The notes beneath the pieces were generated by a model. That model searched no databases, was not told the origin of the DNA, and saw nothing but the letters and a program-made list of their open reading frames with translations. Below are positions 5,614 to 21,215 of a stretch of DNA of 64,000 nt, in pieces. The stretch comes from Patescibacteria group bacterium (GTDB taxonomy: Bacteria; Patescibacteriota; Patescibacteriia; 2-01-FULL-39-33). Positions within the stretch are counted from its first letter, which is position 1; the number at the start of each line of letters is the position of its first letter. The stretch spans positions 6,605-70,604 of the forward strand of contig JBAZRV010000005.1 in the NCBI GenBank assembly GCA_041662745.1, given 5' to 3'. A program made the translations under genes and the position numbers.

Positions 5614-5663
5614 CCAAGCATAAAAATCTAAAATATAATAAGGTTTTCAATTTTTAAAATAGA

Positions 5664-5729
5664 ACGACCGGCATTCATGGCGAATACCGGTCGTTTGGAA
5701 AACAAATTCAAAGCTCAGCGGACTGGATT
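5664..5729. repeat. distal copy of a 66-bp direct repeat (attR-like) carrying the displaced 3' end of tRNA-Asn
   Basis: 62/66 identity with 20881-20946. Contains the hairpin acgaccggcattcatgGcgaataccggtcgt, the flank ggaaaacaaattcaaag, and the 16-nt tRNA 3' end ctcagcggactggatt, then diverges. Confidence 0.7.
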
Positions 5730-6098
5730 TCCGTCTCATCTTTTCTTCCGAAAAGATTGCGGTGTCGCGGTCAGAGCTGAATGCTCCCAGGGTCGCATCC
5801 AGCTACGCTCAACTGCGTTTTATTTTGACAGAATTCAAAATAAAACTTGTTTCGTTCCTGCCCTGTTCGAATCCAACTAAACTGAAAATAGTTTAAAATA
5901 AAACAGGGCATAAAGCCCCGTTTTATTTTAAACAAGTCCAAAGCTCCACGCTACGGTCTGGAACCATTTTTACCAAGGGTTCTTGGGGTCTTTATGAGCG
6001 TTTTCTACCGGGAATCGGTCGGGGTAAAATGCGACAAATGCGACAGTACTTTATGCTGGTTTTATTGGACAAAATGAAGATTTGATAGTCCAATATTA

Positions 6099-6647
6099 CT
6101 ATACATTAAAATTATACCCAACGGGAGGATTATCTAATAATTCTTTGTACTCATTATTATGTCTATCTATTTCCCCTCTATCTACGGAATAGATATTTCC
6201 AAGCGTGTCTAAAATATATATATAATCACAATTAACAAGGTTAACATCAATTAATTTCTGGGTATAAATAAAACCCTCCTCATTTAATCGTACGGGAGCA
6301 TCGGATAATGGCGTATTAATTTTTATTTGACCAAAACGTCCATATATTAGTCTGCTTGCAAATATTCCATCCTTGCCAGTTTTTATTATGTTTATAAAAG
6401 AAACAACTTTATTTTTTGAAATTATATCAAAACCCAATCGTAATTTTAAATTCGCTTTTTGTCTTGAATAATCATACAACTTCCAATAAGCATTTATAAA
6501 TAAGCCACCAATTGAAAAAACAAATGCGGCGATAGAAAGTATTAATGCCATTGGAATATCCAAATATATATTAATCAAAAAAATCAGAAGCAATACTATT
6601 GTTATACTTAACAATATTAACAATATTGGCAATCGAAATTTATCCAT
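6099..6647 (-). CDS. hypothetical membrane protein (2 N-terminal TM helices); third gene of the AlbA_2 operon
   Basis: ORF in a very AT-rich block. N-terminal TM helices (LPILLILLSITIVLLLIFLINIYL, ALILSIAAFVFSIGGLFINAY). Its start lies 3 bp after the upstream gene's stop. Confidence 0.5.
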   Translation of the reverse strand: MDKFRLPILLILLSITIVLLLIFLINIYLDIPMALILSIAAFVFSIGGLFINAYWKLYDYSRQKANLKLRLGFDIISKNKVVSFINIIKTGKDGIFASRLIYGRFGQIKINTPLSDAPVRLNEEGFIYTQKLIDVNLVNCDYIYILDTLGNIYSVDRGEIDRHNNEYKELLDNPPVGYNFNV

Positions 6648-6650
6648 ATT

Positions 6651-7373
6651 TTATAATCTTCTTTCCAAAAATTTTTTCTGATCTTCGACAAAAATCTTTT
6701 TATCTACATTATCCCAATCAAATTTCTTAAAAATTTCAATGGTTGTATCAAGAGCAATCTCATTTGTCAAATTACAAATTTGATCCCGCGAATATACTTT
6801 TTTAATCAGAATTTTATCCTCCTTAAATTTACATATATATGCTCGGTTTGTTTCTCTTAAAAATATATCCCAAAAAAATAACATTCTGTTATTGACTCCC
6901 ACTAATTCAATAATAATTTCCAGTGAGTCAATATTTTCTATATTAGTTAATAATCTTTTAGAGAATTCCAAAATTTCTGTTATAGAATAAAGTGCTCCAA
7001 TAATACTTAAAAATTTATCAACTTTTACCCCGTATTCGTCTTGATATTCCTTCACTTTTTGCGGGGATAATCTCAGATCTTCCCTCATGGAAAAATAATG
7101 TACAAATTGTCCGGTATTATAAAATCTCCAATATTCATAAACTGGCCCCTCAGGCCAATCACAAAATGAGTCAACGCTGTTATTACTACTAGATATAATA
7201 CCGGTTTGACGATCTACGTGCGGGTAATCCCATCCCCGCAACGATACTCTACTTTTTTCAATAATTTTTTTACAATCAGATAGAGATTCAATTAATTTAT
7301 CATCATATTTATTTGGTCTAATAATAACCCTCCAATATCCCTTTAATTTAATTTTGTCTAATAATTCACTCAT
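6651..7373 (-). CDS. hypothetical protein; middle gene of the AlbA_2 operon
   Basis: 240-aa ORF with no recognisable motif. Its start overlaps the stop of the AlbA_2 gene by 4 bp (ATGA). Confidence 0.5.
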   Translation of the reverse strand: MSELLDKIKLKGYWRVIIRPNKYDDKLIESLSDCKKIIEKSRVSLRGWDYPHVDRQTGIISSSNNSVDSFCDWPEGPVYEYWRFYNTGQFVHYFSMREDLRLSPQKVKEYQDEYGVKVDKFLSIIGALYSITEILEFSKRLLTNIENIDSLEIIIELVGVNNRMLFFWDIFLRETNRAYICKFKEDKILIKKVYSRDQICNLTNEIALDTTIEIFKKFDWDNVDKKIFVEDQKKFLERRL

Positions 7374-8014
7374 AAATTATCTTTTATTAAATCAGTATTA
7401 AATTTATCTGAATCTGTTTCAGTGTCCACATTTAATAAGTTAACACAAGGGAGTTTTTTTAATATATCTTCTTTTTTCTTTTGAACCATCCGATCTAATA
7501 ATTCGCGCCACTCATGAATACTGGATATTTCCCTAGACTCAATCGGGGCTTTCGATCTGATATATATCGCATTCTTTCTTAACGCAATATTTTCATAATG
7601 ATTGCCCCCTTGCTTTTTAAACAGAGCAAAATCTGTACATACAGTGGGTTCAATTGATTCATGAATCTGTAAAATGATAAAGTTTTTAGATTCATCATCA
7701 ATTATTAAATTATCAGAAAAAATAGTAAACTCAATAATTGGGTCACAAAATCTTTTTATGAACCTCGCGATATCATCATAATTAAAAGATTGAAAATCGC
7801 TATCAGTCATACCCGATAAACTAACGCTTCGGTCTTTTTCTTCTTTGACACCCAAAACAATCACGCCACCCTGATCATTATTAGCCATAGCCAACATAGC
7901 TTTTAAAACGTTTATTTTCGTTTCGTAAGCATTCCAATTCAGTGATCCTTTATATTCAATGCTTTGTTCCTCATGACGACGTATTATGTAATTCGAAAAT
8001 TCTTCATTAAACAT
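7370..8014 (-). CDS. AlbA_2 (Schlafen-like) putative DNA-binding domain protein
   Basis: N-terminal region fits the AlbA_2 pattern (EQSIEYKGSLNWNAYETKINVLKAMLAMANNDQGGVIVLGVKEE). The C-terminal half is uncharacterised. Confidence 0.55.
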   Translation of the reverse strand: MFNEEFSNYIIRRHEEQSIEYKGSLNWNAYETKINVLKAMLAMANNDQGGVIVLGVKEEKDRSVSLSGMTDSDFQSFNYDDIARFIKRFCDPIIEFTIFSDNLIIDDESKNFIILQIHESIEPTVCTDFALFKKQGGNHYENIALRKNAIYIRSKAPIESREISSIHEWRELLDRMVQKKKEDILKKLPCVNLLNVDTETDSDKFNTDLIKDNL

Positions 8015-8549
8015 CTGATTAATAAATTATTATTTTAATTAAACTTACATTATCACTCTACACCCAAATTGTTATCGAATCAAGATGATTGAACAGTATT
8101 TTCCTATTGCTAACCTCGCAAAAAATATTCAAAAAACCCAGCAAAAAAGCCCTTTTGACAGCCATATAACAAAAGAGTATATTGAAAATAGGCCAGTCAT
8201 AATTCAACCAATAACAAAACCCCCCGAAAAAATTTACTTGACAAATTGGTTTTTTAGGAGTATAGTGACGAAAGGATGAGGTGAAAACCACCGCCGAAAA
8301 ATGCTATTTCAACAATTCATTAAAATGCCACCCTTAATCGGGCAACGCAAGCTCCCTTCATAGAGCCTCTAGAGTTTTAATGCGCATAGCGGTAATATTT
8401 CTAAACCGCAAACCGGAGTAATCCTCTGGTTGGTCTCAATAACATATAGTGAGAGGCCCAGAAGCAGAATTTAACCATGAAAATGGTAAAGTTTTGCGTC
8501 TGGGCCTCTCTTTTATTTTTCAAATTTTTAACAAATTAACAATAAATCT

Positions 8550-8918
8550 ATGTCAAAGACAAAATTTATCAGCACGATCGACTCCGATAATATCGAAGTC
8601 ATCGATCGCGTTCAAAAAGTGGCTGAATTCATCGAATTCGTCAATTGGTCAGCCACTCCGAGCCGATTTCGGCAGCCTAAAAACCAGAAGGATTTAGCTG
8701 CCGAAATCGGAGTGAGTATCGATTCGCTTACTGACTGGAAAAAACATCCGAGCTTCTGGCCGCTAATGCAAATTGCCTTGCGGAAATGGTGCCAAGATCA
8801 AATCCCCGACATTGTCGGCGGATTATACAGCAATGCCTGCGGCAAAGGCAAAGCGGGCGATGTCAAGATGTTCCTGCAATTAGCGGGGCTGATTGAGAAT
8901 AATAAAACTAATAAATAA
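8550..8918 (+). CDS. small HTH protein, phage terminase-small-subunit-like
   Basis: HTH segment QKDLAAEIGVSIDSLTDWKKHPSFW resembles TerS N-termini. Its stop is 8 bp before the ParB-MTase start. Preceded by a large stem-loop. Confidence 0.4.
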   Translation: MSKTKFISTIDSDNIEVIDRVQKVAEFIEFVNWSATPSRFRQPKNQKDLAAEIGVSIDSLTDWKKHPSFWPLMQIALRKWCQDQIPDIVGGLYSNACGKGKAGDVKMFLQLAGLIENNKTNK

Positions 8919-8926
8919 CGAAAAAT

Positions 8927-10276
8927 ATGAATGAAAATTCAAACCAAGCCCCAACGGGCTTAAAAATCGTGGAAGTTCCGATCACTGAGCTTCATGCTTC
9001 CGAGTATAACGCTCGGAAGCATTCCAAAGAACAGGCTAATCAGCTCAGGGAGTCGATTGAGCGATTCGGGTTAGTCGATCCGATTATCTGCAATAATGCT
9101 CCAGAAAGGCAAAATATCGTCATTGGAGGCCACTTCAGGCTTGAGGTAGCCAAAGATCTCGGCTATGCCGAAGTTCCAGTCGTCTACGTTAATATCCCCA
9201 ACATTGAGAAGGAAAAGGAATTGAATTTGCGTTTAAACAAGAACACCGGCGAATTCGATTTGGATCTGCTCGCTCAATTCGATGAATCCTTTCTGGCTGA
9301 CATCGGGTTTGATAGCGAGGAATTGGATCAAATCTTCCCGACTGAAGAAAATATTGAAATGTTCGATTTGAAGAAAGAACTGGACAAATTAGGCATTGGC
9401 GAGATTAAAGTCCAGAAAGGCGATATTTATGAGCTGAACGGTTCGAGGCTAATGTGCGGAGATTCCACTCTAGAAGCCGATGTGCTTGCGCTAATGGGCG
9501 ATGAAAAAGCCACGATGTGCCTCACAGATCCGCCGTATATTTTAGATTATTTGAAAGGCAAGACAAAAAATCAAGATGGCATTACCGAAGGCTTTGGCGC
9601 TAAGAAAAATCGAGTGTATATCGGAACCGAGGTCTTGCCCGATAATTTCACGGAATTATGGATGAATAACGTCGCAAAAATTCAAAAGCCTGATTTTTCC
9701 ATTATCGTTTTTGAGAATCCCAAAAACCTCAGGATAATCTGGAATGAACTCGAGAAGCACTGGAAATACCGCAATACGATTGTCTGGCATCTGCCGAACC
9801 GAGTCCAGGGATTTTCTTCCAAGTACAAGTTTTTCAATAAATCAGACATTGCTTTAGTCGGCACTGGCGGTGAAGTGGAATTGAATTTAGAAGACGAAAC
9901 AGAGGAATTGTTCCAGCAGGAATACGAGAATGCCATCTATGCGACCTCAGGCAAGCCTCATTGGGAATCTTACGAAGCTGGCAAGAAAATCTGTCCGACT
10001 GATTTCATTGAGTTTAAAGCGGCTGATGAGAAGTCCTCTGGGCAAGGCATCATCTTCGGCACCAAGCCGATTGAGATCCTTATTCCCTACATCAAAGTTT
10101 TGACCAAACGAGGTGATTTGATTGTTGAAGTCTATGGTGGAAGCGGCAGTACCCTTATCGCGGCCATTAAGATGAACCGTCGCTGTTACCTGATGGAGAA
10201 ACAGCCGATTTATGCCGAGGTCATCTTGAACCGCTGGGAAAGAGAAACTGGCAAGAAGCCAGTGAAGATTAACTAG
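8927..10276 (+). CDS. ParB-like nuclease domain fused to a beta-class N6-adenine/N4-cytosine DNA methyltransferase
   Basis: N-terminal ParB/Srx-like signature (IVEVPITELHASEYNARKH...GGHFRLEVAKDLGYAEVPVVYV). C-terminal catalytic motif IV (CLTDPPYILDY) and AdoMet motif (VEVYGGSGSTLIAA), in the DPPY-then-FxGxG order typical of the beta class. Confidence 0.8.
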   Translation: MNENSNQAPTGLKIVEVPITELHASEYNARKHSKEQANQLRESIERFGLVDPIICNNAPERQNIVIGGHFRLEVAKDLGYAEVPVVYVNIPNIEKEKELNLRLNKNTGEFDLDLLAQFDESFLADIGFDSEELDQIFPTEENIEMFDLKKELDKLGIGEIKVQKGDIYELNGSRLMCGDSTLEADVLALMGDEKATMCLTDPPYILDYLKGKTKNQDGITEGFGAKKNRVYIGTEVLPDNFTELWMNNVAKIQKPDFSIIVFENPKNLRIIWNELEKHWKYRNTIVWHLPNRVQGFSSKYKFFNKSDIALVGTGGEVELNLEDETEELFQQEYENAIYATSGKPHWESYEAGKKICPTDFIEFKAADEKSSGQGIIFGTKPIEILIPYIKVLTKRGDLIVEVYGGSGSTLIAAIKMNRRCYLMEKQPIYAEVILNRWERETGKKPVKIN

Positions 10277-10292
10277 CACCTTTGTTAAACGT

Positions 10293-10877
10293 ATGATTAA
10301 GAGTCCCACCAAAAAAAAGTTGCTCGCTGAATTGGAAAAAAACGGCAATGTCACCATTGCCTGTTTAAAGTCCGGAGTCAACCGAGCGACTTTCTACCGG
10401 TGGAAGCAAGAGAGTAATGAGTTCAAGGAGAGAGCGGAACAAGCTGAACTATCCGGACGAGAAAATAACTGCGATATTGCCGAACAATCTTTGATGTTGA
10501 AAATCAAAGATAAAGATTTAGGAGCGATTAAATACCTGTTAAGCCATAACTCTCCAAGATATAAAGGCAAGGAAACTAGCATGGCGGTGATTATCCACAA
10601 GAAGGAAATGCCTGAATCAGAATTTATTAGCATAGAGCAACCTGAAGTATATAATAGAGTTTGTCATGAATATGCAATTGAGCTTCAAGAAAAATATAAG
10701 TATTTGGGAGAAAAATTACCAAACAAACCCAATGGATTACCGATAGAACTTGATGAACTGCCTCTTTATGAAACATACATTGAAGATTGGAAAGAAGAAA
10801 GAAGAAAGGAAAGGGTCGCAGCAGGACTGGAGCATGAACGACAGGTTATGCCATGGATCGCGCAGAAGGAAGATTAA
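10293..10877 (+). CDS. HTH-domain protein, terminase small subunit-like or excisionase-like
   Basis: N-terminal HTH (NVTIACLKSGVNRATFYRWKQE). Lies 16 bp after the ParB-MTase gene. The charged C-terminal half is uncharacterised. Confidence 0.4.
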   Translation: MIKSPTKKKLLAELEKNGNVTIACLKSGVNRATFYRWKQESNEFKERAEQAELSGRENNCDIAEQSLMLKIKDKDLGAIKYLLSHNSPRYKGKETSMAVIIHKKEMPESEFISIEQPEVYNRVCHEYAIELQEKYKYLGEKLPNKPNGLPIELDELPLYETYIEDWKEERRKERVAAGLEHERQVMPWIAQKED

Positions 10878-10880
10878 TGA

Positions 10881-11963
10881 TTATTCCAAATGGGTGCTGG
10901 CTTTTATAACCAGCAATATGTCATCGTAATTTTGCAAAAATTCCTGCGGTTCTATTTTGTAAGTATTTTCCAATAATTCATCTGCTGTCGGTTTAAGCTT
11001 TGATTTGGATATTTCGTTATAAAAAGCATTGAAATATTTGTCAAACACTTCTTTATCGGTATGATTCTTGAGCCAGCCGAATTTAATCAAAAATGTGCCG
11101 TCGGAATAGATTGAGAATGGCGAAATAGTCGAACTAAGCTTTTTGATTATTGGCGCAAACGAACCATTGGCATTACCAGTACCCCATTTTATCTTGTCAG
11201 TATTCGCTTTGAGATATTCATAAAGCTTAAATACTTTCTCTGCTTCCGCACCTAATTTTTCTTTCGCTTGAATAAAAAAACTTTCTTCATCCCAGATTCT
11301 CCTTTGGTTAATAGTAGAAACAGACATGCCCTTTTTTACCTCTACGCCAAACAACTTGGGAATCATTATCTCGTACTGCTCGTACTTGTAATATTCCATT
11401 TGAACGGCATAGATATCGAAATGGCTATTCTGGTTGATATAGACAATCAGGTCTTTCAACCTGTCTTCAATCGAATCCATCAGAATAACGAATTTGATAT
11501 TGCCTTGCTGGAGGTTATTTTTAATGGCTTCCAGCATGTCAACTACCTGCTCATCGTCAATATTAAAAAATGCCTTGGCTTTCTCTTCAAAACTGACTTT
11601 AAATTTATTACTAACCTCACTATTTATCTTAGCGATGAATTCGCTAAAGTCGCTATGGCGCCAAAGCGAAGCTCCGTAATCAAGGGCTTGGGCCACGACT
11701 GTTCTTTTGTCGGGATTCTTGTAAAGCTTAGTTTCCACGACATAGATGTCGCCATCCTTGTCGATAGCCAAAGCATCGATGGGGCCAGACTCGGTCGAGA
11801 ATTCCCTGGCGACAACAAATAGCTTCTTGTCTTCTTCGATTTCATAGACAGGAATGGACTCGGGGTTCTCATGGATATAATTCTGCAAATAGCCTTCTTT
11901 CTCAAAGATAGACTTATCAATCCTCTGAGCCTTTTTGCCGTCTTGAGAAATAATTATGGACAT
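10881..11963 (-). CDS. hypothetical protein with putative N-terminal PD-(D/E)xK nuclease-like motif (NucS/DUF91-like)
   Basis: D-x(n)-E-x-K arrangement (GPIDALAIDKDGDIYVVETKLYK) resembling the NucS/DUF91 endonuclease core. The rest is uncharacterised. Confidence 0.35.
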   Translation of the reverse strand: MSIIISQDGKKAQRIDKSIFEKEGYLQNYIHENPESIPVYEIEEDKKLFVVAREFSTESGPIDALAIDKDGDIYVVETKLYKNPDKRTVVAQALDYGASLWRHSDFSEFIAKINSEVSNKFKVSFEEKAKAFFNIDDEQVVDMLEAIKNNLQQGNIKFVILMDSIEDRLKDLIVYINQNSHFDIYAVQMEYYKYEQYEIMIPKLFGVEVKKGMSVSTINQRRIWDEESFFIQAKEKLGAEAEKVFKLYEYLKANTDKIKWGTGNANGSFAPIIKKLSSTISPFSIYSDGTFLIKFGWLKNHTDKEVFDKYFNAFYNEISKSKLKPTADELLENTYKIEPQEFLQNYDDILLVIKASTHLE

Positions 11964-11967
11964 AGGA

Positions 11968-12297
11968 TTATGATTGGCCTACCTTAATACGGGATTGGAT
12001 AAAGTCGCTATATAGCTTTTGACCCTCAGGATCGCCTGAAGCGACTACCCCGTCTTTGTTAAGTAGGATGGTTAAATTCAGTGTCTTGGCCGGCTTATTG
12101 GCAAAATACAGATAAAGGATGCCGGGGATAATAGCGCAACATAATAGCAATAAGGCTAAGAGGCAGCTGCCTTTCTTGGCAGGAATCTGCTTCTGGTAAT
12201 TGACCACTTTGTCAGAGTGGCTGATTAGAAGCCAGCCTGAGCCGTTAACGGCCATATAGTCGATGAAGTCATTTAATACTTCGTTTGATTCGCTCAT
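11968..12297 (-). CDS. small membrane protein
   Basis: One TM helix (CLLALLLLCCAIIPGILYLYF). Its stop is 4 bp upstream of the 10881-11963 gene. Confidence 0.4.
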   Translation of the reverse strand: MSESNEVLNDFIDYMAVNGSGWLLISHSDKVVNYQKQIPAKKGSCLLALLLLCCAIIPGILYLYFANKPAKTLNLTILLNKDGVVASGDPEGQKLYSDFIQSRIKVGQS

Positions 12298-12682
12298 AGA
12301 GTTTTTGGGTTAATAATAAAGCCAGCTAAGTGGTTTTAGCTGGCTTGAGAGAATTTGCATAAACACAAAGCCCCACGCCAGCTGAGCCTTACGGCCCCAT
12401 ACCCGTTTCCAGGCATGACCCAACAAAGAGTCGCTGATCGTGGGGATCAGTATCTTTGTTGGGTATTTTGAGCCATGCCCGCCAAATGACGGGTTTAGGC
12501 TCTGCTTTCGCTATAAATTGTACTTTTATTGTACTATAAAAGGTTCGACTTTGTCCACCATACTAGCTTAAATAACAGAATCCGCGAAGTCGAGTTATCA
12601 ACAGGTTGCCTACTGCCGGGGTCTGGACTCCCAGCCGCCAGTCCGGCATCATGTCCCTTACATAAGAAATAACTTCAAATTT

Positions 12683-14008
12683 ATGGGACTAATAAGTGAC
12701 AAGGAAATGGCGGTTTTAGGGCATACCAGGACGTTTGAGGCGGTCTTACCGGTAAAGTACTGTCTTTATGCGAGAAAGTCGACCGAGGACGACGAGAGGC
12801 AGGCTTTGAGCATCGAATCTCAGGTTAAAGAGATGCTGGAGCAAGCCCAAAAAGACAAACTGAATATTGCGGAAATAAAGAGAGAATCCCACTCAGCCAA
12901 AGACTCAGGTGAAAGGCCAGTATTCAATAAACTGATGAGGGAGATTAAGGAGGGAAAATTCGACGGCATCCTGACCTGGGCTCCAGATAGATTGAGCCGT
13001 AACGCTGGCGACTTGGGCAGTATCGTCGATTTGATGGACAGAGGCATGATCAAGGAGATAAGAACGCACGGCCAAACATTCATCAACTCCCCTAATGAGA
13101 AATTCCTGCTGATGATTCTGTGTTCCCAAGCCAAATTAGAAAATGATAATAAGGGCGAGAATGTTAAAAGAGGATTGAGAGCCAAAGTGGAAATGGGCTG
13201 GAGGCCGGGCATGCCACCGCTCGGTTATCTTCACGACAAGAATGGCGACAAAGGCAAAAGAAGAGCTTTTACTGATCCCAAAAGAGCGCCGATCATGAAG
13301 CAATTGTTTGATAAAGTTGCCTATGAGGGCTGGAGCGGTCGAGCCATATTCAAATGGCTCGATGAAATGGATTTCAGAACTAGATCGGGCAAGAAGATGA
13401 CCTTAAGCTCAATCTACCTCGTACTCAAAAATACTTACTACTATGGCTACTTTGAATATCCAGTGGGCAGCGGCAATTGGTATAAAGGCGGACACGAGCC
13501 GATTATAACAAAAGAAACTTTCGATGAAGCTCAAATACAACTCACGGTAGCGCCAAAATCCAAACCAGGCACCAAAGAATTCAGCTTCACTAAAATGATA
13601 AAATGCGGAGCTTGCGGATCAGGTGTAACGGCAGAAGAGAAATACAAAAAACTGAGCGATGGCTCAGTCAAAAAATATATCTATTACCACTGCAGCAGAT
13701 TCAATGATCTTAAATGCAAAGAATCCTACATCAGGGAAGAAAACTTAACTATTCAGCTAGTCAAATTAATAGATAAAATCGACATTAATCTTTTGAAAAC
13801 CCAAAAGAGAATTAAGGATGAGATAGACCGCTATCAAAAATTCACTAAAAATATCCTAGGTGTAGATAACAAAATAAAGATGCCGGAGATAAATATGAAA
13901 GACTATGCCAGATATGTTTTGACGGATGGCACTAGAGAAGAAAAAAGAGAACTGCTTAATTGCCTGGATTCTGAATTAAAATTGATGGGGCAGAAGATTT
14001 ATATTTAA
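12683..14008 (+). CDS. large serine recombinase (resolvase/invertase catalytic domain, recombinase domain and zinc ribbon)
   Basis: N-terminal catalytic domain with the nucleophile-Ser context (YCLYARKSTEDDERQALSIESQ) and resolvase motifs (GILTWAPDRLSRN). Central recombinase domain, then C-terminal Cys cluster (CGACGSG...YYHCSRF). Confidence 0.85.
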   Translation: MGLISDKEMAVLGHTRTFEAVLPVKYCLYARKSTEDDERQALSIESQVKEMLEQAQKDKLNIAEIKRESHSAKDSGERPVFNKLMREIKEGKFDGILTWAPDRLSRNAGDLGSIVDLMDRGMIKEIRTHGQTFINSPNEKFLLMILCSQAKLENDNKGENVKRGLRAKVEMGWRPGMPPLGYLHDKNGDKGKRRAFTDPKRAPIMKQLFDKVAYEGWSGRAIFKWLDEMDFRTRSGKKMTLSSIYLVLKNTYYYGYFEYPVGSGNWYKGGHEPIITKETFDEAQIQLTVAPKSKPGTKEFSFTKMIKCGACGSGVTAEEKYKKLSDGSVKKYIYYHCSRFNDLKCKESYIREENLTIQLVKLIDKIDINLLKTQKRIKDEIDRYQKFTKNILGVDNKIKMPEINMKDYARYVLTDGTREEKRELLNCLDSELKLMGQKIYI

Positions 14009-14095
14009 CGCATAATTGCAATATCTCATTCCAATTAATAATACATCTGGTTAATATATTGCCACAGGTAGCGCTGAAAATCTTAAAAAGCTAAA

Positions 14096-15565
14096 TTATG
14101 ACGCTTTTAAAAAAATATATGTATTCCTCAATGCAGGAAAAATTCTTAACAGCTTATTAGAATTTTTGTCAAAATCAGGCAAATTTTTAATTGCAATCAA
14201 AAAATACCTAGCAATTTTCTCTTCGTTAGAGAATAATTGATAAAAATCATTTTTTATGGACATCTTTGAACCATAAGAGCCAAACTTAGCAATAAAAATT
14301 AAATAATATCCAATAAACATAAAATTAGATGTGCCATAAACCTTTTCCTTTTCTAATGACAAAACTAATTCCATGTCAATTTCATTTGCTTTTAATAATG
14401 CTCTTAAAATAAAAATTTTCTGGTATAAGTAAGGCGACGATTTCAGAACGCTTATTAATAATCGTTGAATATCAACCCTATCTATGTAATCCTCTAGATA
14501 ATAACAAATTTCTTTTGAGTAGCATGGATCGAAAAGATTATTTTTTAAAATGCTTTCCAACGGGTGGCTTAAATGTAATCTTTTGAATTTATAGATGCAA
14601 AACTTAAAAACGGTCTTATTAATTTTGTCAACTGCTCTATTTATTACAGCATCGTCCCACATTTCTTTCAGTTGATCATCAACGAAATCGCAATTATCAT
14701 CATCAAAATCGGACATTAAATAATTAACAAAATCCATAGTGTCAGAATAATTATTTTTATTGGTTGTATGTTTCGAATAATTAATTATCTCAGTTTTACC
14801 GCCATTGAGATGCAGATTTAATGGCCTCAGTAATTCCGTCAATTTGCTTAATGCCCTTCTAACGCCGATTTCATCATCCGAAAATACCCTTATATCATCC
14901 ACAAATCTATAATAATTAAATCCAGACTCGATCATGGACTGATCAACCTCGTATAAATATACATTTGCCAAAAATGAAGCACAATCATTGCCCTGGCATA
15001 ATCCAATCTCATCTTCACACCAAGTATTTAAAAGATGGCTTAACTTATCTGAGATTTCTTTTTCTGTTCCTAAATATTTTAATATCTCGATGATTTTTTT
15101 GATTTTGATATGTTCAAAAAATGCGTTGATATCGGTTTTTAAAAGAAACCCATTCGGATTATTAATAAAATTATCATTTGATTTCTTTATAAAACTTTTC
15201 CAACTTTCAATATTTTCATTCCTATTCAAAAAATAATTTTTCTTTTTTGATATCCTATAACCGAAACTGATTTGGCTTGAAACTAGCAACTTATCAATAT
15301 CTTTGCTAAATCTGTTTAGTATTAATTGAAAATACAACCTATCTAGGATAGAAATGAAATATCCTGGCCTCAATATTAAATTCGGCTTCGGTATGTCTAA
15401 TATCAATAAGCTATGAGGAGTATAATTATCAAAATCAATTTCATAAAAAATTGATGGATTATTAATATAATCACGATAATTAATGACATCAGGCCAAAAA
15501 TCATCGTTTTCATCCTTACTGATATTGCTTACGGCTACATTAATTTCTTCCCTAGTGAAATTCAT
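14096..15565 (-). CDS. reverse transcriptase (standalone, defence/Abi-like) with alpha-helical C-terminal domain
   Basis: RT motifs: TDINAFFEHI (motif 2-like), GLCQGNDCASFLANVYLYEVD (motif 4/QG), YYRFVDDIRVF (YxDD catalytic motif), LHLNGGKTEI (motif 6-like). The ~200-aa C-terminal region has no identifiable domain. The gene is very AT-rich. Confidence 0.8.
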   Translation of the reverse strand: MNFTREEINVAVSNISKDENDDFWPDVINYRDYINNPSIFYEIDFDNYTPHSLLILDIPKPNLILRPGYFISILDRLYFQLILNRFSKDIDKLLVSSQISFGYRISKKKNYFLNRNENIESWKSFIKKSNDNFINNPNGFLLKTDINAFFEHIKIKKIIEILKYLGTEKEISDKLSHLLNTWCEDEIGLCQGNDCASFLANVYLYEVDQSMIESGFNYYRFVDDIRVFSDDEIGVRRALSKLTELLRPLNLHLNGGKTEIINYSKHTTNKNNYSDTMDFVNYLMSDFDDDNCDFVDDQLKEMWDDAVINRAVDKINKTVFKFCIYKFKRLHLSHPLESILKNNLFDPCYSKEICYYLEDYIDRVDIQRLLISVLKSSPYLYQKIFILRALLKANEIDMELVLSLEKEKVYGTSNFMFIGYYLIFIAKFGSYGSKMSIKNDFYQLFSNEEKIARYFLIAIKNLPDFDKNSNKLLRIFPALRNTYIFLKAS

Positions 15566-15630
15566 ATAAACATATTCATTAAAACTGACTAATCCTTATG
15601 ATTATTCATCTTAAATTTTCGAACATACAA

Positions 15631-16047
15631 TTACAATTTCGATACTAGCTTATTTTCGATTTTAGACATAGACTTATTAAAATTTCTTTGAGTTAATTGG
15701 TGTTCCCAAATCCTCAGAACCTTCCATCCCATTCTTTTTAATTTTCTTCTATTCTTAACATCCCGATGAATATTAGCTTCAATTTTAGCGCGCCAATACT
15801 TCTTTGGCAAGCGTTTTTTCGTATTGCTAAAATTGTAACCGTGCCAAAAATCGCCATCAATAAACACGGCGATTTTTTTGCGTGGCAGGGCGATATCCGG
15901 CTTGCCCGGCGCCCTTTTATAATGCTTTTGGAAATATACGCCTCTTTTCCTTAATTCACCGAAAACTAAAAGCTCCACTTTGGTGTTCTTGCCCCTGATC
16001 TTAGACATTATCTCGCTTCTTTTCTCTTTTGAAAACACGTCTGCCAT
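15631..16047 (-). CDS. vsr: very-short-patch-repair endonuclease Vsr
   Basis: Close match to E. coli Vsr along its length (MADV...KRSEIMSKIRGKNTKVE...PGKPDIAL...IAVFIDGDFWHG...GWKVLRIWEHQL). Confidence 0.85.
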   Translation of the reverse strand: MADVFSKEKRSEIMSKIRGKNTKVELLVFGELRKRGVYFQKHYKRAPGKPDIALPRKKIAVFIDGDFWHGYNFSNTKKRLPKKYWRAKIEANIHRDVKNRRKLKRMGWKVLRIWEHQLTQRNFNKSMSKIENKLVSKL

Positions 16048-16085
16048 AATTCACTGTTGGGATTATTTTCTATTCATTTTCTAAT

Positions 16086-16125
16086 ATGATATAATATTGT
16101 CATACATGTGGATAACTCCACAGGA
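16086..16125 (+). promoter_or_regulatory. putative promoter plus palindromic operator upstream of the LexA-Dcm gene
   Basis: Extended -10 (tgatataat) at 16086-16094, followed by a perfect 16-bp palindrome TGTGGATAACTCCACA (16107-16122) ~23 bp upstream of the ATG. Read directly from the sequence. Confidence 0.4.
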
Positions 16126-16145
16126 ATAAAAAATAACTAGAAAAT

Positions 16146-17696
16146 ATGCCCACACTTACTAAGAAACAAAAAAACGTTCTTGATTTTATTGAGGGCTATC
16201 GCGATAGGAAGCACTATTCCCCCTCCCATGAAGAGATCAAGAATCACTTCAAGCTATCTTCCGTTTCAACTGCGCATCATTATATCTCCAAGTTGCAGAA
16301 GGCCGGATATCTGAAAAAAGAAGATAACCAGCCGAGATCAATAAACCTCTGCTTCGAACCGGTAATCCAGATTGATCTATTGGGCAATATTACTGCCGGC
16401 CAGCCAATCGAAGCGATTGAATTAGGCAAGGAAACAATCGCTATTCCTAGCTATGGACTTAATAGGAATAGTAGCTATTACGCTCTCAAAGTCAAGGGCG
16501 ACAGCATGATCGATGAAGGGATATTCGACGGCAGCATCGTAGTCATCAAGAAGCAATCAACTGCTGAAAACGGCCAGACCGTAGTCGCCGTGATAGATGA
16601 TAACGAGGCAACACTGAAAATGATATACCGCGAAAAGAATAAATTCCGCTTGCAGCCAGCCAACCAAAGCATGCTTCCCTTTTACCGCAAAGAAGTGGAA
16701 ATCCGCGGGGTAGTGATAAAAATCATCAGGGATTTATATAAAGAAGAGCAGAAATTCAGAACTCTTGATCTATTCGCAGGCGTAGGTGGCATCAGGCTGG
16801 GATTTGAAAAAGCCGGTTTCGAGACCGTATTCGCTAATGACTTTGAAAAAGCCTGCGCAGATACTTATAACAAGAACTTCAAGACTTCAAAATTAGTAGT
16901 AGAGGATATTAGGAGAATCGGAATCGATGATCTGCCTGAATTCGACTTCCTGCTCGGCGGCTTTCCTTGCCAGGCATTCTCAATAGCTGGCTACCGCAAA
17001 GGATTCGAAGATGACAAAGGGCGGGGCAACCTATTCTTTGATGTCGCAAGGATAATAGAAACCAGAAGGCCGACAGGATTCCTAATGGAAAACGTCAAGA
17101 ACCTTAAAAGCCATGATAACGGACGGACATTCAAAATCATCAAAGAAACCCTGGAAAACCTCGGCTATCATATCAAAGCCAGGGTTTTGAATAGCGTGGA
17201 GTACGGCAATATCCCCCAGAACCGTGAAAGGATTTACATCGCCGGATTCAGGGACAAAAGGCATTGCGATAATTTCGAATTCCCAAAGCCGGTGAAACTG
17301 ACAAACAAGGTTGCAGATCTTCTCGAAAAAAAAGTTGATGAAAAATATTATTACAATGGAAAGCCTCTTTACCAAAAGCTTAAGGATTTCGTGAAAGAAA
17401 AAAATAAAGTCTACCAATGGCGCCGCCAATACGTCCGTGAAAATAAAAAAGGCGTCTGTCCGACGCTGACTGCGAATATGGGGATGGGCGGCCATAATGT
17501 TCCGATTATCAAGGATGACAAAGGCATTAGGAAGCTTACGCCGTTAGAATGTTTTAGGCTCCAGGGATTTCCAAAGAGCTTCGAGCTTCCAGCTAATTTG
17601 GCTGATTCAGCTCTTTACAAGCAGGCCGGCAATTCAGTTACAGTTACAGTATTGGAAGCGGTAGGCAAGCAAATGATGCAGGCTGTCAGCGACTAA
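16146..17696 (+). CDS. fusion protein: full-length LexA-type repressor (wHTH plus S24 autopeptidase) fused to a C5-cytosine DNA methyltransferase (Dcm-type)
   Basis: aa 1-~195 align with LexA: wHTH (LTKKQKNVLDFIEGY...SKLQKAGYL), Ala-Gly cleavage site (ITAGQP), Ser nucleophile (KVKGDSMIDEG) and Lys (EATLKMI). aa ~200-516 carry C5-MTase motifs I (LDLFAGVGGIRLGF), IV (GGFPCQAFSIAG), VI (ENVKNL), VIII (QNRERIYIAGF) and X (RKLTPLECFRLQGFP). Confidence 0.85.
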   Translation: MPTLTKKQKNVLDFIEGYRDRKHYSPSHEEIKNHFKLSSVSTAHHYISKLQKAGYLKKEDNQPRSINLCFEPVIQIDLLGNITAGQPIEAIELGKETIAIPSYGLNRNSSYYALKVKGDSMIDEGIFDGSIVVIKKQSTAENGQTVVAVIDDNEATLKMIYREKNKFRLQPANQSMLPFYRKEVEIRGVVIKIIRDLYKEEQKFRTLDLFAGVGGIRLGFEKAGFETVFANDFEKACADTYNKNFKTSKLVVEDIRRIGIDDLPEFDFLLGGFPCQAFSIAGYRKGFEDDKGRGNLFFDVARIIETRRPTGFLMENVKNLKSHDNGRTFKIIKETLENLGYHIKARVLNSVEYGNIPQNRERIYIAGFRDKRHCDNFEFPKPVKLTNKVADLLEKKVDEKYYYNGKPLYQKLKDFVKEKNKVYQWRRQYVRENKKGVCPTLTANMGMGGHNVPIIKDDKGIRKLTPLECFRLQGFPKSFELPANLADSALYKQAGNSVTVTVLEAVGKQMMQAVSD

Positions 17697-18877
17697 TCAT
17701 CCTCGGATTCCCCAGACCTATCTTCCTTTACCTCCCCCGCAAATTCTTCATAAGATCCGACTTTAGTGAAGTCAATGTCATATTTTCCTTCTCCAATTTT
17801 GTATATTACGACTGAGTCCAAGCCGATCTCCTCTAATTTGCCATAAGTCAAAAGATCTCTTTCTTTCAGATCCAGTATGTCTCGAAGAAGCCACTGGCCC
17901 AGTGCCGAATTAGGATTGCTCATCAACGCCTTTGATCCGTCCTGGCATACCTTGGCTGACATTTCAGCGCCATTCGGCAGGAGCAGGGTGAATGAAGTGT
18001 CGCGCGGAGGGAAAAATCCCGGATATTCAGAATGTATCAATGCCGGGATCGGAATATACACTTCATCAGGATTTCTCGGCCTGCCTAAGGCATTCCATTG
18101 ATTGAGTCCGCTCCTGGCCGGCACTTCTTTAATTCCTTTTTTTGATGAATAAAGCGGAAGAAAAACATGAGTAAGAGCCTTAATGGGCGCAAAAACAACT
18201 TCCCGTTCAACTTTCCTGAAAACATTTTCAAGCGCATCAAAGGGATTCTCCAGTATTTTTACCGGAAAATCCAATAATGCATCGGATAAATTAAACCTTT
18301 TGTATAATGTGCTCTTGGTCACATTGAAGGAGTACTCATTGCTGCCGTCGCTGAATGAAATCGCATTCGCATTCTTTCCTGATTTGATATTCCTTATTTT
18401 TGATAAATTTACCAGATCCATTCCTGATTCATAAACCAAAATACCGCCCTTTTTCCGAGTAACGCAGTGATACATCATTTTTTCCAAACCGAATATTCTT
18501 TTTGTCGCGTTAATCCGCTCATTCCTCAGCCCGGCTATCTTAATGACTTTTCCCTTATCATCCAAATTTCGGAATAAATTATGCTCGCTATTGAATTCAG
18601 CGATCTTCTGCATAGTCGCTCCATTGCCTTCAAGGAAAGTTTTGATTCCGATTCCAACTTTATTCTTAGCCGCATCAGCTGAACAGTCGGTTCTGGATAA
18701 ATTGTCGGCATTAAAAGACTTGCAAAATAAATTTTCTGCAATCCTGTATTGGATATACGGCTCCTGGCTTTCTGAAAACAAACGGGACAACGATCCGATC
18801 GTACGGAGCATCTCCTGATAATATGATATGCTTTTCTTGTCCTGCTTATTCAGAAACATATAATGATATTTTCTCAC
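17693..18877 (-). CDS. putative type II restriction endonuclease, cognate to the adjacent C5-MTase (function inferred from context)
   Basis: 394-aa ORF convergent with the MTase gene, 3' ends overlapping by 4 bp. No known motif recognised; the call rests on the dcm-vsr neighbourhood. Confidence 0.35.
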   Translation of the reverse strand: MRKYHYMFLNKQDKKSISYYQEMLRTIGSLSRLFSESQEPYIQYRIAENLFCKSFNADNLSRTDCSADAAKNKVGIGIKTFLEGNGATMQKIAEFNSEHNLFRNLDDKGKVIKIAGLRNERINATKRIFGLEKMMYHCVTRKKGGILVYESGMDLVNLSKIRNIKSGKNANAISFSDGSNEYSFNVTKSTLYKRFNLSDALLDFPVKILENPFDALENVFRKVEREVVFAPIKALTHVFLPLYSSKKGIKEVPARSGLNQWNALGRPRNPDEVYIPIPALIHSEYPGFFPPRDTSFTLLLPNGAEMSAKVCQDGSKALMSNPNSALGQWLLRDILDLKERDLLTYGKLEEIGLDSVVIYKIGEGKYDIDFTKVGSYEEFAGEVKEDRSGESEDD

Positions 18878-18920
18878 TTTACCGCTATTGTGTCAATTCG
18901 AATATAAACTGCCGAAAGCC

Positions 18921-18985
18921 AGTCTAGAACCAAAACGACCGGTTCGCCAGTGGCGGATCGGTCGCGCAGGAAAACAAGTTCTTGG
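18921..18985. repeat. third copy of the hairpin-plus-flank repeat (lacks the tRNA segment)
   Basis: gtctagaaccaaaacgaccgg is identical to 20869-20889. Followed by a different hairpin (ttcgccagtggcggat...cggtcg) and ggaaaacaagttc. Confidence 0.55.
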
Positions 18986-19018
18986 TTTTTATATTTGGAT
19001 ATAATAATGAAATTTAAT

Positions 19019-20050
19019 TTAGGTGGTAATCTCACCAACAATACTAGTATTAATCGCTCGTGATAAAGCTTTCGCTGATTTTAGTCCTTGTGCCAAAACC
19101 CACATAAATTTAACTTGAGCCATAACATCAGTTAAATCGCCAGCTGGAATAGCCCCCGCATCCAATGCTAATTTTCCTGGTTCATAAATATCCATATGGG
19201 TTTGACCGCCGACAAATTTAGTCGAAACAATAACTGGAATTTTAAGAACATTGACGGATTCACTGATAACTGGAAGAAGTGAGTACTCATTTTCACTCGG
19301 AACATTACCTGCACCCAATGATTTTAGTAACAAACCTTCGACCCCCCCCAATCGCAAAATTTTCGTAAGAATTTTTGGCTCTAGCCCTGGCACTAAATCA
19401 ATTGCAAGAATTCCTCGCTGGAATTCTGCATTAACTTTTAATGGTGTTTTTCTTTCCACCCTGAATGCTTCTGGAATAAAATGAACACCTACGGCGTCTA
19501 TCCTGGCTAAATGTGGAAAGGCTGGCGAATCAAATGCAGGGAATCTTGCTTCGCTGGTTTTTATAGCTCTGACGGCTCGCAGGACGCTATCGCTAAAACA
19601 AATCATTACTTCCGCAATTTTCTCATCGCAAGCTTGAAGAGCTGTCTTCATTGAATTTTCTAAATTGAAGCGTGCGTCTGTACCATAGGCAACTAAGGGA
19701 AGTTGTGAGCCCGTAAAGACAATAGGAATTTTTAACCCTCTACCAAGCGCAAGAGCAACACCGCCAGCTGTATATGTCATAGTGTCAGTACCATGCGTAA
19801 TAATAATAGCGTCCGCTTGATTATGGATTTCTTTGATTTTAAGGGCTAATTTTTTCCAATGGGTCGGGTTAATATTTGTGCTATCCAGACGTTCAAGCTC
19901 TAAGAAAGAAACATCTGCCATTTCTTGTAATGATGGAACTATAGCAAGAATCTCCTTTATGCTTTTAGCGGGCTTCAAAACTCCCGATGGGTCTGGAACC
20001 ATTGCAATAGTTCCGCCAAATCCTAGTATTACAATTTTTCGTTTCTTCAT
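19019..20050 (-). CDS. ansA: L-asparaginase, type I family
   Basis: Asparaginase signatures (ILGFGGTIAM and ITHGTDTMTYTAGGVALAL); full-length match of ~340 aa. Confidence 0.8.
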   Translation of the reverse strand: MKKRKIVILGFGGTIAMVPDPSGVLKPAKSIKEILAIVPSLQEMADVSFLELERLDSTNINPTHWKKLALKIKEIHNQADAIIITHGTDTMTYTAGGVALALGRGLKIPIVFTGSQLPLVAYGTDARFNLENSMKTALQACDEKIAEVMICFSDSVLRAVRAIKTSEARFPAFDSPAFPHLARIDAVGVHFIPEAFRVERKTPLKVNAEFQRGILAIDLVPGLEPKILTKILRLGGVEGLLLKSLGAGNVPSENEYSLLPVISESVNVLKIPVIVSTKFVGGQTHMDIYEPGKLALDAGAIPAGDLTDVMAQVKFMWVLAQGLKSAKALSRAINTSIVGEITT

Positions 20051-20053
20051 AAG

Positions 20054-20569
20054 TTATTTTTCGTTTATTTCTTTTGAGGCAATTATCTCACCGTCTTTTC
20101 TTTCATCAATAGTATAACCGACTTTGGCATGCCCTTGTTTTAATAATTCAGTTTCTGCTGGTTCTTCAGCGATTAATTTGCCAAAAACTAAGCTGCAATC
20201 ATTTGCCCGAGCGACAGAGTCAGCGATTCCAAGCAGCTGCTCGCCGATTTTTTTACCTCGCAAATCAGGCCTGACGTATCTATCCGCAATATACAAATAA
20301 TTAGCCGAACTGCCATCTTTTTTATTATAAATTTTAAACAGTTTTAGATTTATAAAATAACGTTGATCTTCGCCTGTAAGATTGATTCTGTAGGCGGTCG
20401 ATTTCGCTAAATCAACATCCAATAACTTTACGCCAACGGTTATAAGTTCGGAATAATTGTTTATCTTGCCTAATCTGGTTTCCAGAGCTTGAATTTGGCC
20501 ATCGACTCTGATTCGATATTCATCATCAACAATTAAGCTGTAATCCCTAGTTACGGCAGAATCATACAA
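20054..20569 (-). CDS. putative GNAT-family N-acetyltransferase
   Basis: Acetyl-CoA-binding motif-A-like segment (YVRPDLRGKKIGEQLLGIA). Its stop is 4 bp upstream of ansA. Confidence 0.4.
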   Translation of the reverse strand: MYDSAVTRDYSLIVDDEYRIRVDGQIQALETRLGKINNYSELITVGVKLLDVDLAKSTAYRINLTGEDQRYFINLKLFKIYNKKDGSSANYLYIADRYVRPDLRGKKIGEQLLGIADSVARANDCSLVFGKLIAEEPAETELLKQGHAKVGYTIDERKDGEIIASKEINEK

Positions 20570-20880
20570 GGTGCTGTCTTTAGCCGCCTGGATAAATTTA
20601 ATATATATTTGTTTAGTGGCTCCAATAGTTTATCGCGCCATGCCTTCAGCCGATGACAAAAGACGTTCTCTTTCAGCCAAAGACAACTCGGACAACCTTT
20701 CTGGATTGTGCAAATAATCGGCTAATTGGGGCTCGCCTTCATACTGTTCCCGATCCTCGTAACGTCCAAATTTTTCCATAAATATCATTCATTTATATGT
20801 GTATTATACACTATTTTAACTAAAAACAAAAGTCGAACGAACTAACTTCGAACTTTGCCCCCAATCGGTCTAGAACCAAA

Positions 20881-20946
20881 ACGACCGGCATTCATGACGA
20901 ATGTCGGTCGTTTGGAAAACAAGTTCAAAGCTCAGCGGACTGGATT
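20881..20946. repeat. proximal copy of the 66-bp direct repeat (attL-like), overlapping the 3' end of tRNA-Asn
   Basis: Matches 5664-5729 at 62/66 positions. Positions 20931-20946 are the tRNA 3' end. Confidence 0.7.
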
Positions 20947-21002
20947 CGAACCAGTAACCTACCGGTTAACAGCCGGTTGCTCTACCATTGAGCTACCGCT
21001 GA
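20931..21002 (-). tRNA. tRNA-Asn (anticodon GTT)
   Basis: Manual fold: TCAGCGG/CCGCTGA acceptor stem, GCTC-AATGGTA-GAGC D arm, ACCGG-CTGTTAA-CCGGT anticodon arm (GTT), ACTGG-TTCGAAT-CCAGT T arm, discriminator G. CCA is not encoded. Confidence 0.85.
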
Positions 21003-21039
21003 ACCTTGAACTTGTTTTATTTTTTTAAGTTCATCCAAT

Positions 21040-21215
21040 TTAACAGCCGGCGAGCCGGTTGCTCTTCCTGGGCAGCGCTGAACGCTCCCATTGGTCGCGT
21101 TCATCGACACTCGACTTCGCCTTGAGGCTCGTCTTGTTTCTGCCCGTCCATCCGCTAAAGCGGATCGGACCCATTTCGCTACCGCTGAACCTTGGACTTG
21201 TTTTATCGATCAAAA
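21040..21215 (-). other. tRNA-like structured leader or pseudo-tRNA fragment between the promoter and tRNA-Asn
   Basis: Repeats the tRNA 5' end plus 17-nt upstream flank (ataaaacaagtccaaggttcagcggtagc, 28/29 identical) and an anticodon-arm-like element (gagcaaccggctCGCCGGctgttaa). No T arm. GC-rich with several hairpins. Confidence 0.5.

Follow-up and report, generated by a model that had tools for sequence, protein, structure and literature searches.

How did a block of foreign-looking DNA come to be framed by a long direct repeat of a tRNA end, when the only recombinase that it encodes is a large serine recombinase (LSR)? The question is raised by an island in a 64,000-nt stretch of contig JBAZRV010000005.1 (assembly GCA_041662745.1), which was analyzed at its full length and is called the window below. 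The host chromosome is that of an uncultured Candidatus Buchananbacteria, a member of the Candidate Phyla Radiation (CPR, or Patescibacteria), whose members have tiny genomes and mobile elements that are little known. About 15.2 kb is enclosed between tRNA-Asn, with rpoD and dnaG on the right flank, and an operon of molybdopterin oxidoreductase, msrB, and msrA on the left. Sequence comparisons support the view that the enclosed DNA was acquired horizontally and went in at the 3' end of tRNA-Asn. Our preferred account of its origin, which we put forward tentatively and at nearly an even chance, is that of a mosaic, LSR-family integrative defense island, whose incoming element brought with it a tRNA end and terminator resembling those of the host.

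The border repeat at tRNA-Asn

The island borders share 67 nt (5663-5729 and 20880-20946, 63/67 identical). A first-pass annotation, made from the letters alone, had recognized this repeat but set it one base short, as 5664-5729 and 20881-20946 with 62/66 identities. A degenerate 48-nt pattern derived from the repeat matches only these 2 sites in 64 kb, and 0/100 shuffles match. The right copy overlaps a tRNA-Asn(GTT) gene on the minus strand, placed at 20930-21002 by ARAGORN and at 20931-21002 by Rfam, and covers its last 16-17 nt, beginning in the T-loop. Read in the tRNA sense, each border copy runs from the tRNA 3' end (16-17 nt) through a 15-nt flank into a strong hairpin with a U-rich tail. 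The three parts that the annotation had named, hairpin, flank, and tRNA-Asn 3' end, are thereby confirmed by ARAGORN and Rfam placement and by folding. The junction region contains the following features.

5663-5729, minus strand: T1, the distal (left) repeat copy; in tRNA sense, the last 17 nt of tRNA-Asn (5729-5713), the flank CTTTGAATTTGTTTT, and a terminator hairpin
5730-6010, minus strand: degenerate second copy of X, forming the island's inner left end and holding a 72%-identical block at ~5769-5818
18922-18985, minus strand: T2, a third, partial copy with flank, hairpin, and tail and without the tRNA part; it parts the asparaginase/GNAT block from the restriction-modification (R-M) block
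20880-20946, minus strand: T3, the proximal (right) repeat copy; the 3' end of the intact tRNA-Asn, flank, and terminator hairpin
20930-21002, minus strand: intact tRNA-Asn(GTT) (ARAGORN, Rfam); its 15-nt flanks pair, lengthening the acceptor stem
21003-21206, minus strand: X, a 5' fragment of a pseudo-tRNA-Asn on the promoter side of the gene, made up of the 5' flank with ~12-19 nt of tRNA, an insert of ~135 nt, and a stretch resembling an anticodon arm

Folding energies of the hairpins are -23.0 (T1), -18.8 (T2), and -20.8 (T3) kcal/mol, and a U-rich tail comes after each. T2 and T3 have in common the flank GAACTTGTTTTCC, the outer stem CGACCG/CGGTCG, and the tail TTTTGGTTCTAGAC, and after the T3 hairpin an element-specific tail, TTTTGGTTCTAGACCGATTGG, reaches to about 20859.

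Composition also sets the enclosed DNA apart. The island has 38.3% G+C (GC) against 42.4% and 46.6% in the flanks, and its windows have a mean tetranucleotide distance of 0.363 against 0.211 for all background windows (Mann-Whitney p = 2e-7), so that the GC and k-mer comparison proposed in the first-pass annotation does separate it from flanks and background. The description "markedly AT-rich" holds for two sub-blocks, 5730-8450 (32%) and the reverse transcriptase (RT) region (28%); it does not extend to the remaining island, at 40-42%, which makes the whole a mosaic of blocks at 28-42% GC.

These data bear directly on the view that nothing was inserted here, the content being ancestral and the repeat a terminator or REP-like (repetitive extragenic palindromic) element or a chance duplication. 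Terminator-like repeats do flank gene blocks in two related loci, L039 and L066. We nevertheless give this view next to no credence: in 64 kb, hairpin plus flank occurs only at T1, T2, and T3, all at the island locus (0.03 occurrences expected by chance), the repeat includes tRNA sequence, the composition is unlike both flanks, and a sister species and a co-occurring strain differ at the site. The same three copies rule out a dispersed REP-like repeat within the window, which the annotation had named as a possible refutation. An integron cassette array was also considered and rejected, as there is no IntI and there are three hairpins only, not one per gene.

As a separate observation, the flanks of the intact tRNA-Asn (20916-20930 and 21003-21017) are complementary and extend its acceptor stem by 15 bp. 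The same pairing is present in the sister species (L002, 13925-13939 and 14012-14026), where it is kept via a compensatory A/T to G/C change, and it is probably a pre-tRNA processing stem.

Island genes and variants at the locus

Gene calls were made by Pfam scans of all 16 island open reading frames (ORFs), PADLOC, and Rfam.

6099-8291, minus strand: AT-rich module (32% GC) of a 182-aa membrane protein, a 240-aa unknown, a 214-aa Schlafen/AlbA_2 protein, and a 77-aa ORF
8451-8510, plus strand: leader hairpin with 28-nt arms, upstream of the TerS-like/ParB-methylase operon
8550-10877, plus strand: TerS-like protein (122 aa), ParB_N-N6/N4 DNA methylase (449 aa), and TerS-like helix-turn-helix (HTH) protein (194 aa)
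10881-12297, minus strand: PDC-S11-like PD-(D/E)xK nuclease (360 aa) and a 109-aa unknown
12384-12501, minus strand: LOOT RNA (RF03000); a promoter-like site of its own lies at 12557-12528 and a terminator at 12346-12319
12683-14008, plus strand: LSR (441 aa) with Resolvase, Recombinase, and Zn-ribbon domains and the catalytic motif YARKST
14096-15565, minus strand: defense-type RT (489 aa, 28% GC), best matches RT_UG21, UG32, and UG9
15631-18877, mixed strands: type II R-M block, made up of the next three components
15631-16047, minus strand: Vsr
16146-17696, plus strand: fusion of LexA DNA-binding domain, S24 peptidase, and C5-methylase
17693-18877, minus strand: NgoFVII-like restriction endonuclease
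19019-20569, minus strand: asparaginase (343 aa) and GNAT acetyltransferase (171 aa), a 1.95-kb block between T2 and T3

Pfam and PADLOC hits agree with the gene types that had been read from the translations (recombinase, RT, R-M, methyltransferase, and terminase-like HTH), and the LSR is indeed the sole recombinase. No Phage_integrase domain (PF00589) is present in any island ORF of at least 70 aa, and the intergenic gaps, at most 385 nt, leave no space for a tyrosine-integrase remnant. The 182-, 240-, and 360-aa unknowns, considered as hidden integrases, are not recombinases. The island resembles a defense island in that it holds several defense systems (PADLOC, Pfam) and exchanges cargo between conserved flanks. 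It does not qualify as a prophage or satellite: no virion structural, replication, lysis, or hijacking genes were recognized among its ORFs, only the TerS-like and ParB-methylase genes.

A metagenome search with an att-core pattern returned three contigs (L036, L037, and L038), all from JGI metagenome 3300014208. L037 carries the left junction and is 99.9% identical to the window. L036 begins at tRNA-Asn and agrees with the window across the repeat and 21 tail nucleotides, bar one single-nucleotide difference in the hairpin; a type III R-M system and a Shedu gene then replace 6.8 kb of the window, and the asparaginase/GNAT block is absent. The match is regained exactly at the LSR stop codon, with 87% identity through LSR and LOOT, a DUF4352 gene in place of the 109-aa ORF, and 82% identity across nuclease, HTH gene, and ParB-methylase. 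L038 covers rpoD, X, and tRNA-Asn and ends inside the hairpin at the very base where the L036 and window variants differ, as expected of an assembly-graph bubble, which suggests that two island alleles lie behind the same rpoD-tRNA in one community. Between the window and L036 LSR genes, dS is 0.88 and dN/dS is 0.035, indicating strong purifying selection. Judged by these substitution rates, the LSR gene appears to be functional and the alleles old relative to the junction that they share.

More distant comparisons also show a variable interval after tRNA-Asn. The window DnaG is 84% identical to that of L002, a Candidatus Buchananbacteria metagenome-assembled genome, and synteny between the two on the rpoD/dnaG side ends at tRNA-Asn; L002 then has other genes, including a different LexA-methylase fusion, and no X. 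In L039 and L040, which are more distant, tRNA-Asn lies 6.7 kb upstream of oxidoreductase-msrB-msrA, which has the same orientation, and unrelated genes fill the interval. Homologues of the left-flank oxidoreductase are found in island-free contexts, with no clean attB among them. The annotation had proposed a search of relatives for an empty site; none was found, and what came out instead was the differing content in L002, L039, and L036, which speaks for insertion. Horizontal acquisition is supported by this differing content in L002 and L039, the cargo variant in L036, the composition, and the defense and mobile gene content. The locus accordingly shows the marks of a tRNA-linked island: the 3' end of a tRNA gene with a distal direct repeat of its 3' part, host-deviating composition, and content that varies among relatives.

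The LSR family and the origin of the repeat

More than 8000 LSR homologues at ~60% identity were found, with source names from several CPR lineages. In relatives with genomic context the LSR lies beside ParB-methylase, TerS-like, and sometimes TerL-like genes, and sometimes a LOOT RNA. The TerS-like/ParB-methylase module adjoins the LSR also in L061, L065, L066, L073, L076, and L079 and is the conserved, phage-derived core of the element family. Defense genes always follow the LSR stop in these relatives, and the cargo directly there differs in every one, L070 and L066 included. A module comparable to the SLFN_AlbA_2 genes of the island adjoins the LSR in L066. L075 has an HTH_17 protein, a candidate directionality factor.

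The LSR 3' end faces a tRNA in several of these elements: tRNA-Asn after rpoD, 60 nt from the LSR stop, in L063; tRNA-Gln, with cargo between, in L061 and L066; and tRNA-Asp, 143 nt from the LSR stop, in L076. In a profile-based scan of IMG/VR, 18 of 69 loci had a tRNA downstream, the closest of which is in convergent orientation to the LSR 3' end in 18/18; tRNA counts were only 2 in ~0.5 Mb upstream of the LSR versus at least 23 in <0.3 Mb downstream. The tRNAs seen in the family are Asn, Gln, Ser, Glu, Asp, Arg, and Trp. No conserved att motif is visible between LSR stop and tRNA across relatives. The family thus consists of a phage-derived core, a single LSR aimed at a tRNA 3' end, and fast-changing defense cargo between the LSR stop and the tRNA.

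Six IMG/VR contigs labeled as viral (3300042286_000458, 3300000970_000154, 3300032737_000190, 3300014205_009253, 3300014208_000734, and 3300009873_002614) carry two paralogous family LSR genes each, 10-40 kb apart, and may represent tandem or nested elements.

The LSR of the island has the Resolvase, Recombinase, and Zn_ribbon_recom domains and catalytic serine motif of an LSR element, and it is evolving under constraint. No PF00589 domain is recorded in any annotated relative, so the LSR is likely the family integrase, and the lost tyrosine integrase that the first-pass annotation had offered as one option is not the most economical explanation, as the relatives are LSR-only and also sit at tRNA 3' ends. 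A tyrosine-integrase island, with the integrase lost or acting in trans, would be a remnant like the cis-mobilizable elements (CIMEs), in which accretion left T2 behind and the LSR belongs to a nested or unrelated element. In its favor is the block of identity from the T-loop through the tRNA 3' end, a pattern that Williams reportedly described in 2002 as classical for tRNA-targeting tyrosine integrases. The internal partial copy T2 fits accretion, and in L081 a piece of tRNA-Ser reaching from the T-loop to the 3' end follows the intact gene at a distance of ~50 nt. We regard this origin as quite unlikely, given an island with neither a Phage_integrase domain nor room for a remnant and annotated relatives at tRNA 3' ends that would each require an independent loss.

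In the account that we prefer, the LSR, as family integrase, would place the element at or just after the tRNA gene. The incoming element would have brought a tRNA-Asn 3' end with processing flank and terminator of its own, these being the last part of a more extensive copy of the tRNA-Asn locus that it had captured. Joining would preserve tRNA-Asn and its terminator on the proximal side, and the host copy, displaced to the distal junction, would now form the 67-nt repeat; later cargo exchange or addition at the tRNA-proximal end would have left T2 behind. A reconstructed attB would then consist of tRNA-Asn, the terminator, and CTATTTTAAAA..., and attP of the left-end arm, the 67 nt, and TTTTGGTTCTAGAC.... 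The corresponding synthetic junctions would be tRNA-Asn, T hairpin, and CTATTTTAAAAATTG for attB and …GAAAAGATGAGACGGA, the 67 nt, and TTTTGGTTCTAGACCG for attP. We infer LSR catalysis of the insertion, the crossover position, and the order of events.

Several points weigh against this account. LSRs (phiC31, Bxb1, and mycobacteriophage integrases) normally leave a 2-bp crossover only, and no distal copy of the tRNA end was seen in ~20 other family members within the 2-10 kb available, indicating that long repeats are not a general product of the LSR. LSR catalysis alone therefore does not account for the 67 nt, and the worry voiced in the first-pass annotation over a serine recombinase beside so long a repeat was well placed. 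The LSR and the proximal junction are 6.9 kb apart, and a start in the T-loop is a trait that the repeat shares with the att sites of tyrosine integrases. No tRNA was present within 8-10 kb at 3/8 loci outside the IMG/VR scan; within it, provirus edges may be set at tRNAs, a possible inflation of contigs ending at a tRNA that leaves the orientation unaffected. A DnaG genome scan gave one close relative, L002, with other content after tRNA-Asn, the metagenome att-core scan gave integrated junctions only, and viral scans gave nothing. No excised circle or attP was found in these searches.

The homology between the two borders outlasts the repeat at lower identity. A 50-nt block (~5769-5818 versus ~21070-21120) is 72% identical and scores 38, versus 17 +/- 2.4 for shuffles and a shuffle maximum of 28. 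The tRNA-Asn 5' flank and 5' end are themselves duplicated as a 36-nt direct repeat (20985-21020 versus 21171-21206, 92%), which edges X, the ~190-nt module between the promoter (21255-21227) and tRNA-Asn. The left-end copy of X includes a tRNA-3'-end-like stretch plus flank (5930-5953), complementary to the X 5' flank, and a terminator at 5891-5933. Neither X nor the left-end region matches any Rfam family, even at E <= 1. From these alignments, the 67 nt are the well-kept end of a longer duplication, otherwise decayed, that took in the whole X/tRNA-Asn/terminator locus. A simple attL/attR pair made in a single event does not fit T2 and this longer degenerate duplication. The attL/attR reading of the first-pass annotation accordingly keeps its insertion at the tRNA 3' end and loses its one-event pair.

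The tRNA promoter is predicted to drive X, which the sister species L002 lacks; an older insertion into the D-loop may have left X as its scar.

Such a duplication could also arise by Campbell-type homologous insertion, in which a circular element with a captured X/tRNA-Asn/terminator copy, acquired for example by imprecise excision from a related host, joined the resident locus via RecA. The repeat would then be the best-conserved tail of the duplication, made by no site-specific enzyme. Homology at ~72% identity past the 67 nt, the two tiers of identity (94% versus ~70%), and a left end that is a degenerate copy of all of X, down to the flank complementary to the X 5' flank, all speak for this route. 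Other family members are without long repeats, and recombinase-free blocks bracketed by imperfect tRNA-downstream repeats occur here (T2/T3) and in L066 (89 nt, 80%). We consider it somewhat unlikely all the same: identity is high over 67 nt only, the left copy lacks tRNA nt 1-56, so that a later deletion must be assumed, and the family's placement at tRNA 3' ends goes unexplained, so that the LSR is still needed.

The pattern of T2 and T3 recurs elsewhere. Imperfect repeats of tRNA-downstream sequence at 14812-14900 and 15699-15787 in L066 (89 nt, 80% identity) and at 10609-10632 and 12068-12091 in L083 (24 nt) bracket small recombinase-free blocks adjoining the tRNA, which hints at a recurrent route of cargo addition at the tRNA-proximal end.

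How does an LSR-family island of this kind compare with known systems? Like tRNA islands of tyrosine integrases (P4/lambda type), it occupies a tRNA 3' end, has a repeat that starts in the T-loop and restores the tRNA, and is of foreign composition and variable content; unlike them, it has no tyrosine integrase, its tRNA-adjacent gene is cargo, and its repeat continues 50 nt past the tRNA and then into degenerate homology. With LSR elements (phiC31/Bxb1-type prophages, SCCmec with Ccr, and SPbeta with SprA) it shares a single three-domain LSR near one end. In SCCmec, too, the 3' end of a conserved gene is the insertion point, and direct repeats of ~15-27 bp flank the element. The known LSR elements have very short repeats and, for the most part, ORFs or intergenic sites as targets, whereas this family stands at tRNA 3' ends in a CPR host, with a 67-nt repeat in this member in place of a shared crossover of ~2 bp. 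The locus therefore departs both from tRNA islands, for want of a tyrosine integrase, and from classical LSR elements, for want of a short core.

In P2 prophages and P4 satellites, Rousset et al. reportedly described in 2022 defense hotspots with rapidly exchanged cargo between conserved flanks. Defense cargo is likewise swapped here near the integrase/att end (RT and R-M versus type III R-M and Shedu), but the element family, recombinase class, and host phylum differ, and no structural or replication genes were recognized in the island. CIMEs and accretion are known from the ICESt1/3 family of Streptococcus thermophilus, which uses tyrosine integrases. The internal att-like remnant T2 between modules and the repeat-bracketed blocks without recombinase are reminiscent of these, while conjugation genes and a tyrosine integrase are lacking here.

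Taken jointly, these observations could mean that a CPR-wide LSR clade consists of dedicated tRNA-3'-end serine integrases that anchor phage-derived elements and keep a defense hotspot between LSR and tRNA, with LOOT as the element's own small RNA and a tRNA-end/terminator mimic giving some members a tyrosine-like long att repeat. We hold this broader picture to be possible, with clear reservations. The island itself is ordinary biology; the LSR-tRNA geometry, the LOOT placement, and the LexA-methylase fusions are the parts of note. The locus represents a recurrent, recognizable element type that delivers and swaps antiphage systems at tRNA genes, apparently via a serine recombinase. If the LSR-tRNA link is true, it would provide a large natural set of serine integrases whose attB is predictable from tRNA ends, a simple rule for locating CPR defense hotspots, and, for LOOT RNA and LexA-fused R-M methylases, a place in the genome and a setting open to test. 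Our literature search, which covered sources other than subscription journals, returned no LSR-carrying elements or prophages in CPR and no tRNA-linked, LSR-only CPR defense element family.

LOOT RNA, LexA-methylase fusions, and further observations

LOOT RNA has so far been an orphan metagenomic motif, and no function or host for it turned up in the literature searched. The window copy scores 90.9 bits against an Rfam threshold of 46.4 and spans model positions 1-121, which makes it a member of the family. Three LSR/ParB-methylase CPR elements carry copies at 76-91 bits (window 12384-12501, minus strand; L036 7311-7425; L061 3064-3184), with compensatory changes across the three in the long stem. 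We considered whether LOOT always stands beside the LSR and rejected this, as it lies beyond the ParB-methylase in L061 and is absent from L063, L065, L066, L073, and L075. A LOOT-pattern scan of viral contigs gave 3 hits, 0 of which were confirmed by Rfam.

A LexA module is fused to the N terminus of an R-M methylase in the window (16146-17696, plus strand), L002 (15841-17334, minus strand), and L073 (11434-12861, plus strand). The methylases belong to two unrelated classes, C5 in the window and N6/N4 in L002 and L073, and the LexA portions are 49% identical. The fused module is complete, with DNA-binding domain, Ala-Gly cleavage site, and the Ser/Lys residues of S24. This architecture suggests R-M control in CPR elements that may respond to DNA damage or autoregulate. 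No description of a LexA-methylase fusion was found in the literature search.

Long hairpins also stand directly upstream of the ParB-methylase operon in L065 (4354-4417), L073 (7912-7973), and L061 (3431-3493). These leader hairpins have 20-29-nt arms with many G-U pairs on the plus strand, followed in L065 and L073 by an overlapping alternative pairing, and may be attenuator-type leaders. The palindrome at 8451-8510 and its half-copies had been candidates for the LSR att sites; with comparable hairpins preceding the operon in relatives, we take the palindrome to be a leader structure.

Other family members offered further observations. A SAM (S-adenosylmethionine) riboswitch (64 bits) lies at 15537-15643 on the minus strand of L073, after the R-M cargo of the LSR element and upstream of a 145-aa ORF. 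L063 has a second tRNA-Asn copy beside the LSR (9352-9649, minus strand), whose anticodon loop is interrupted by an insert of 221 nt. This insert comes after a U, has G as its last base, contains GTAGAGACTAGA, and is adjoined by a GIY-YIG ORF and a further tRNA 5' fragment; it looks like a group I (IC3-type) tRNA intron, with no Rfam call at the gathering threshold. About 7 kb from the same LSR, at 200-1188, are a bAvd gene and a pair of 125-nt repeats (577-701 and 1064-1188, 86% identity) that resemble the template/variable repeat pair of a diversity-generating retroelement.

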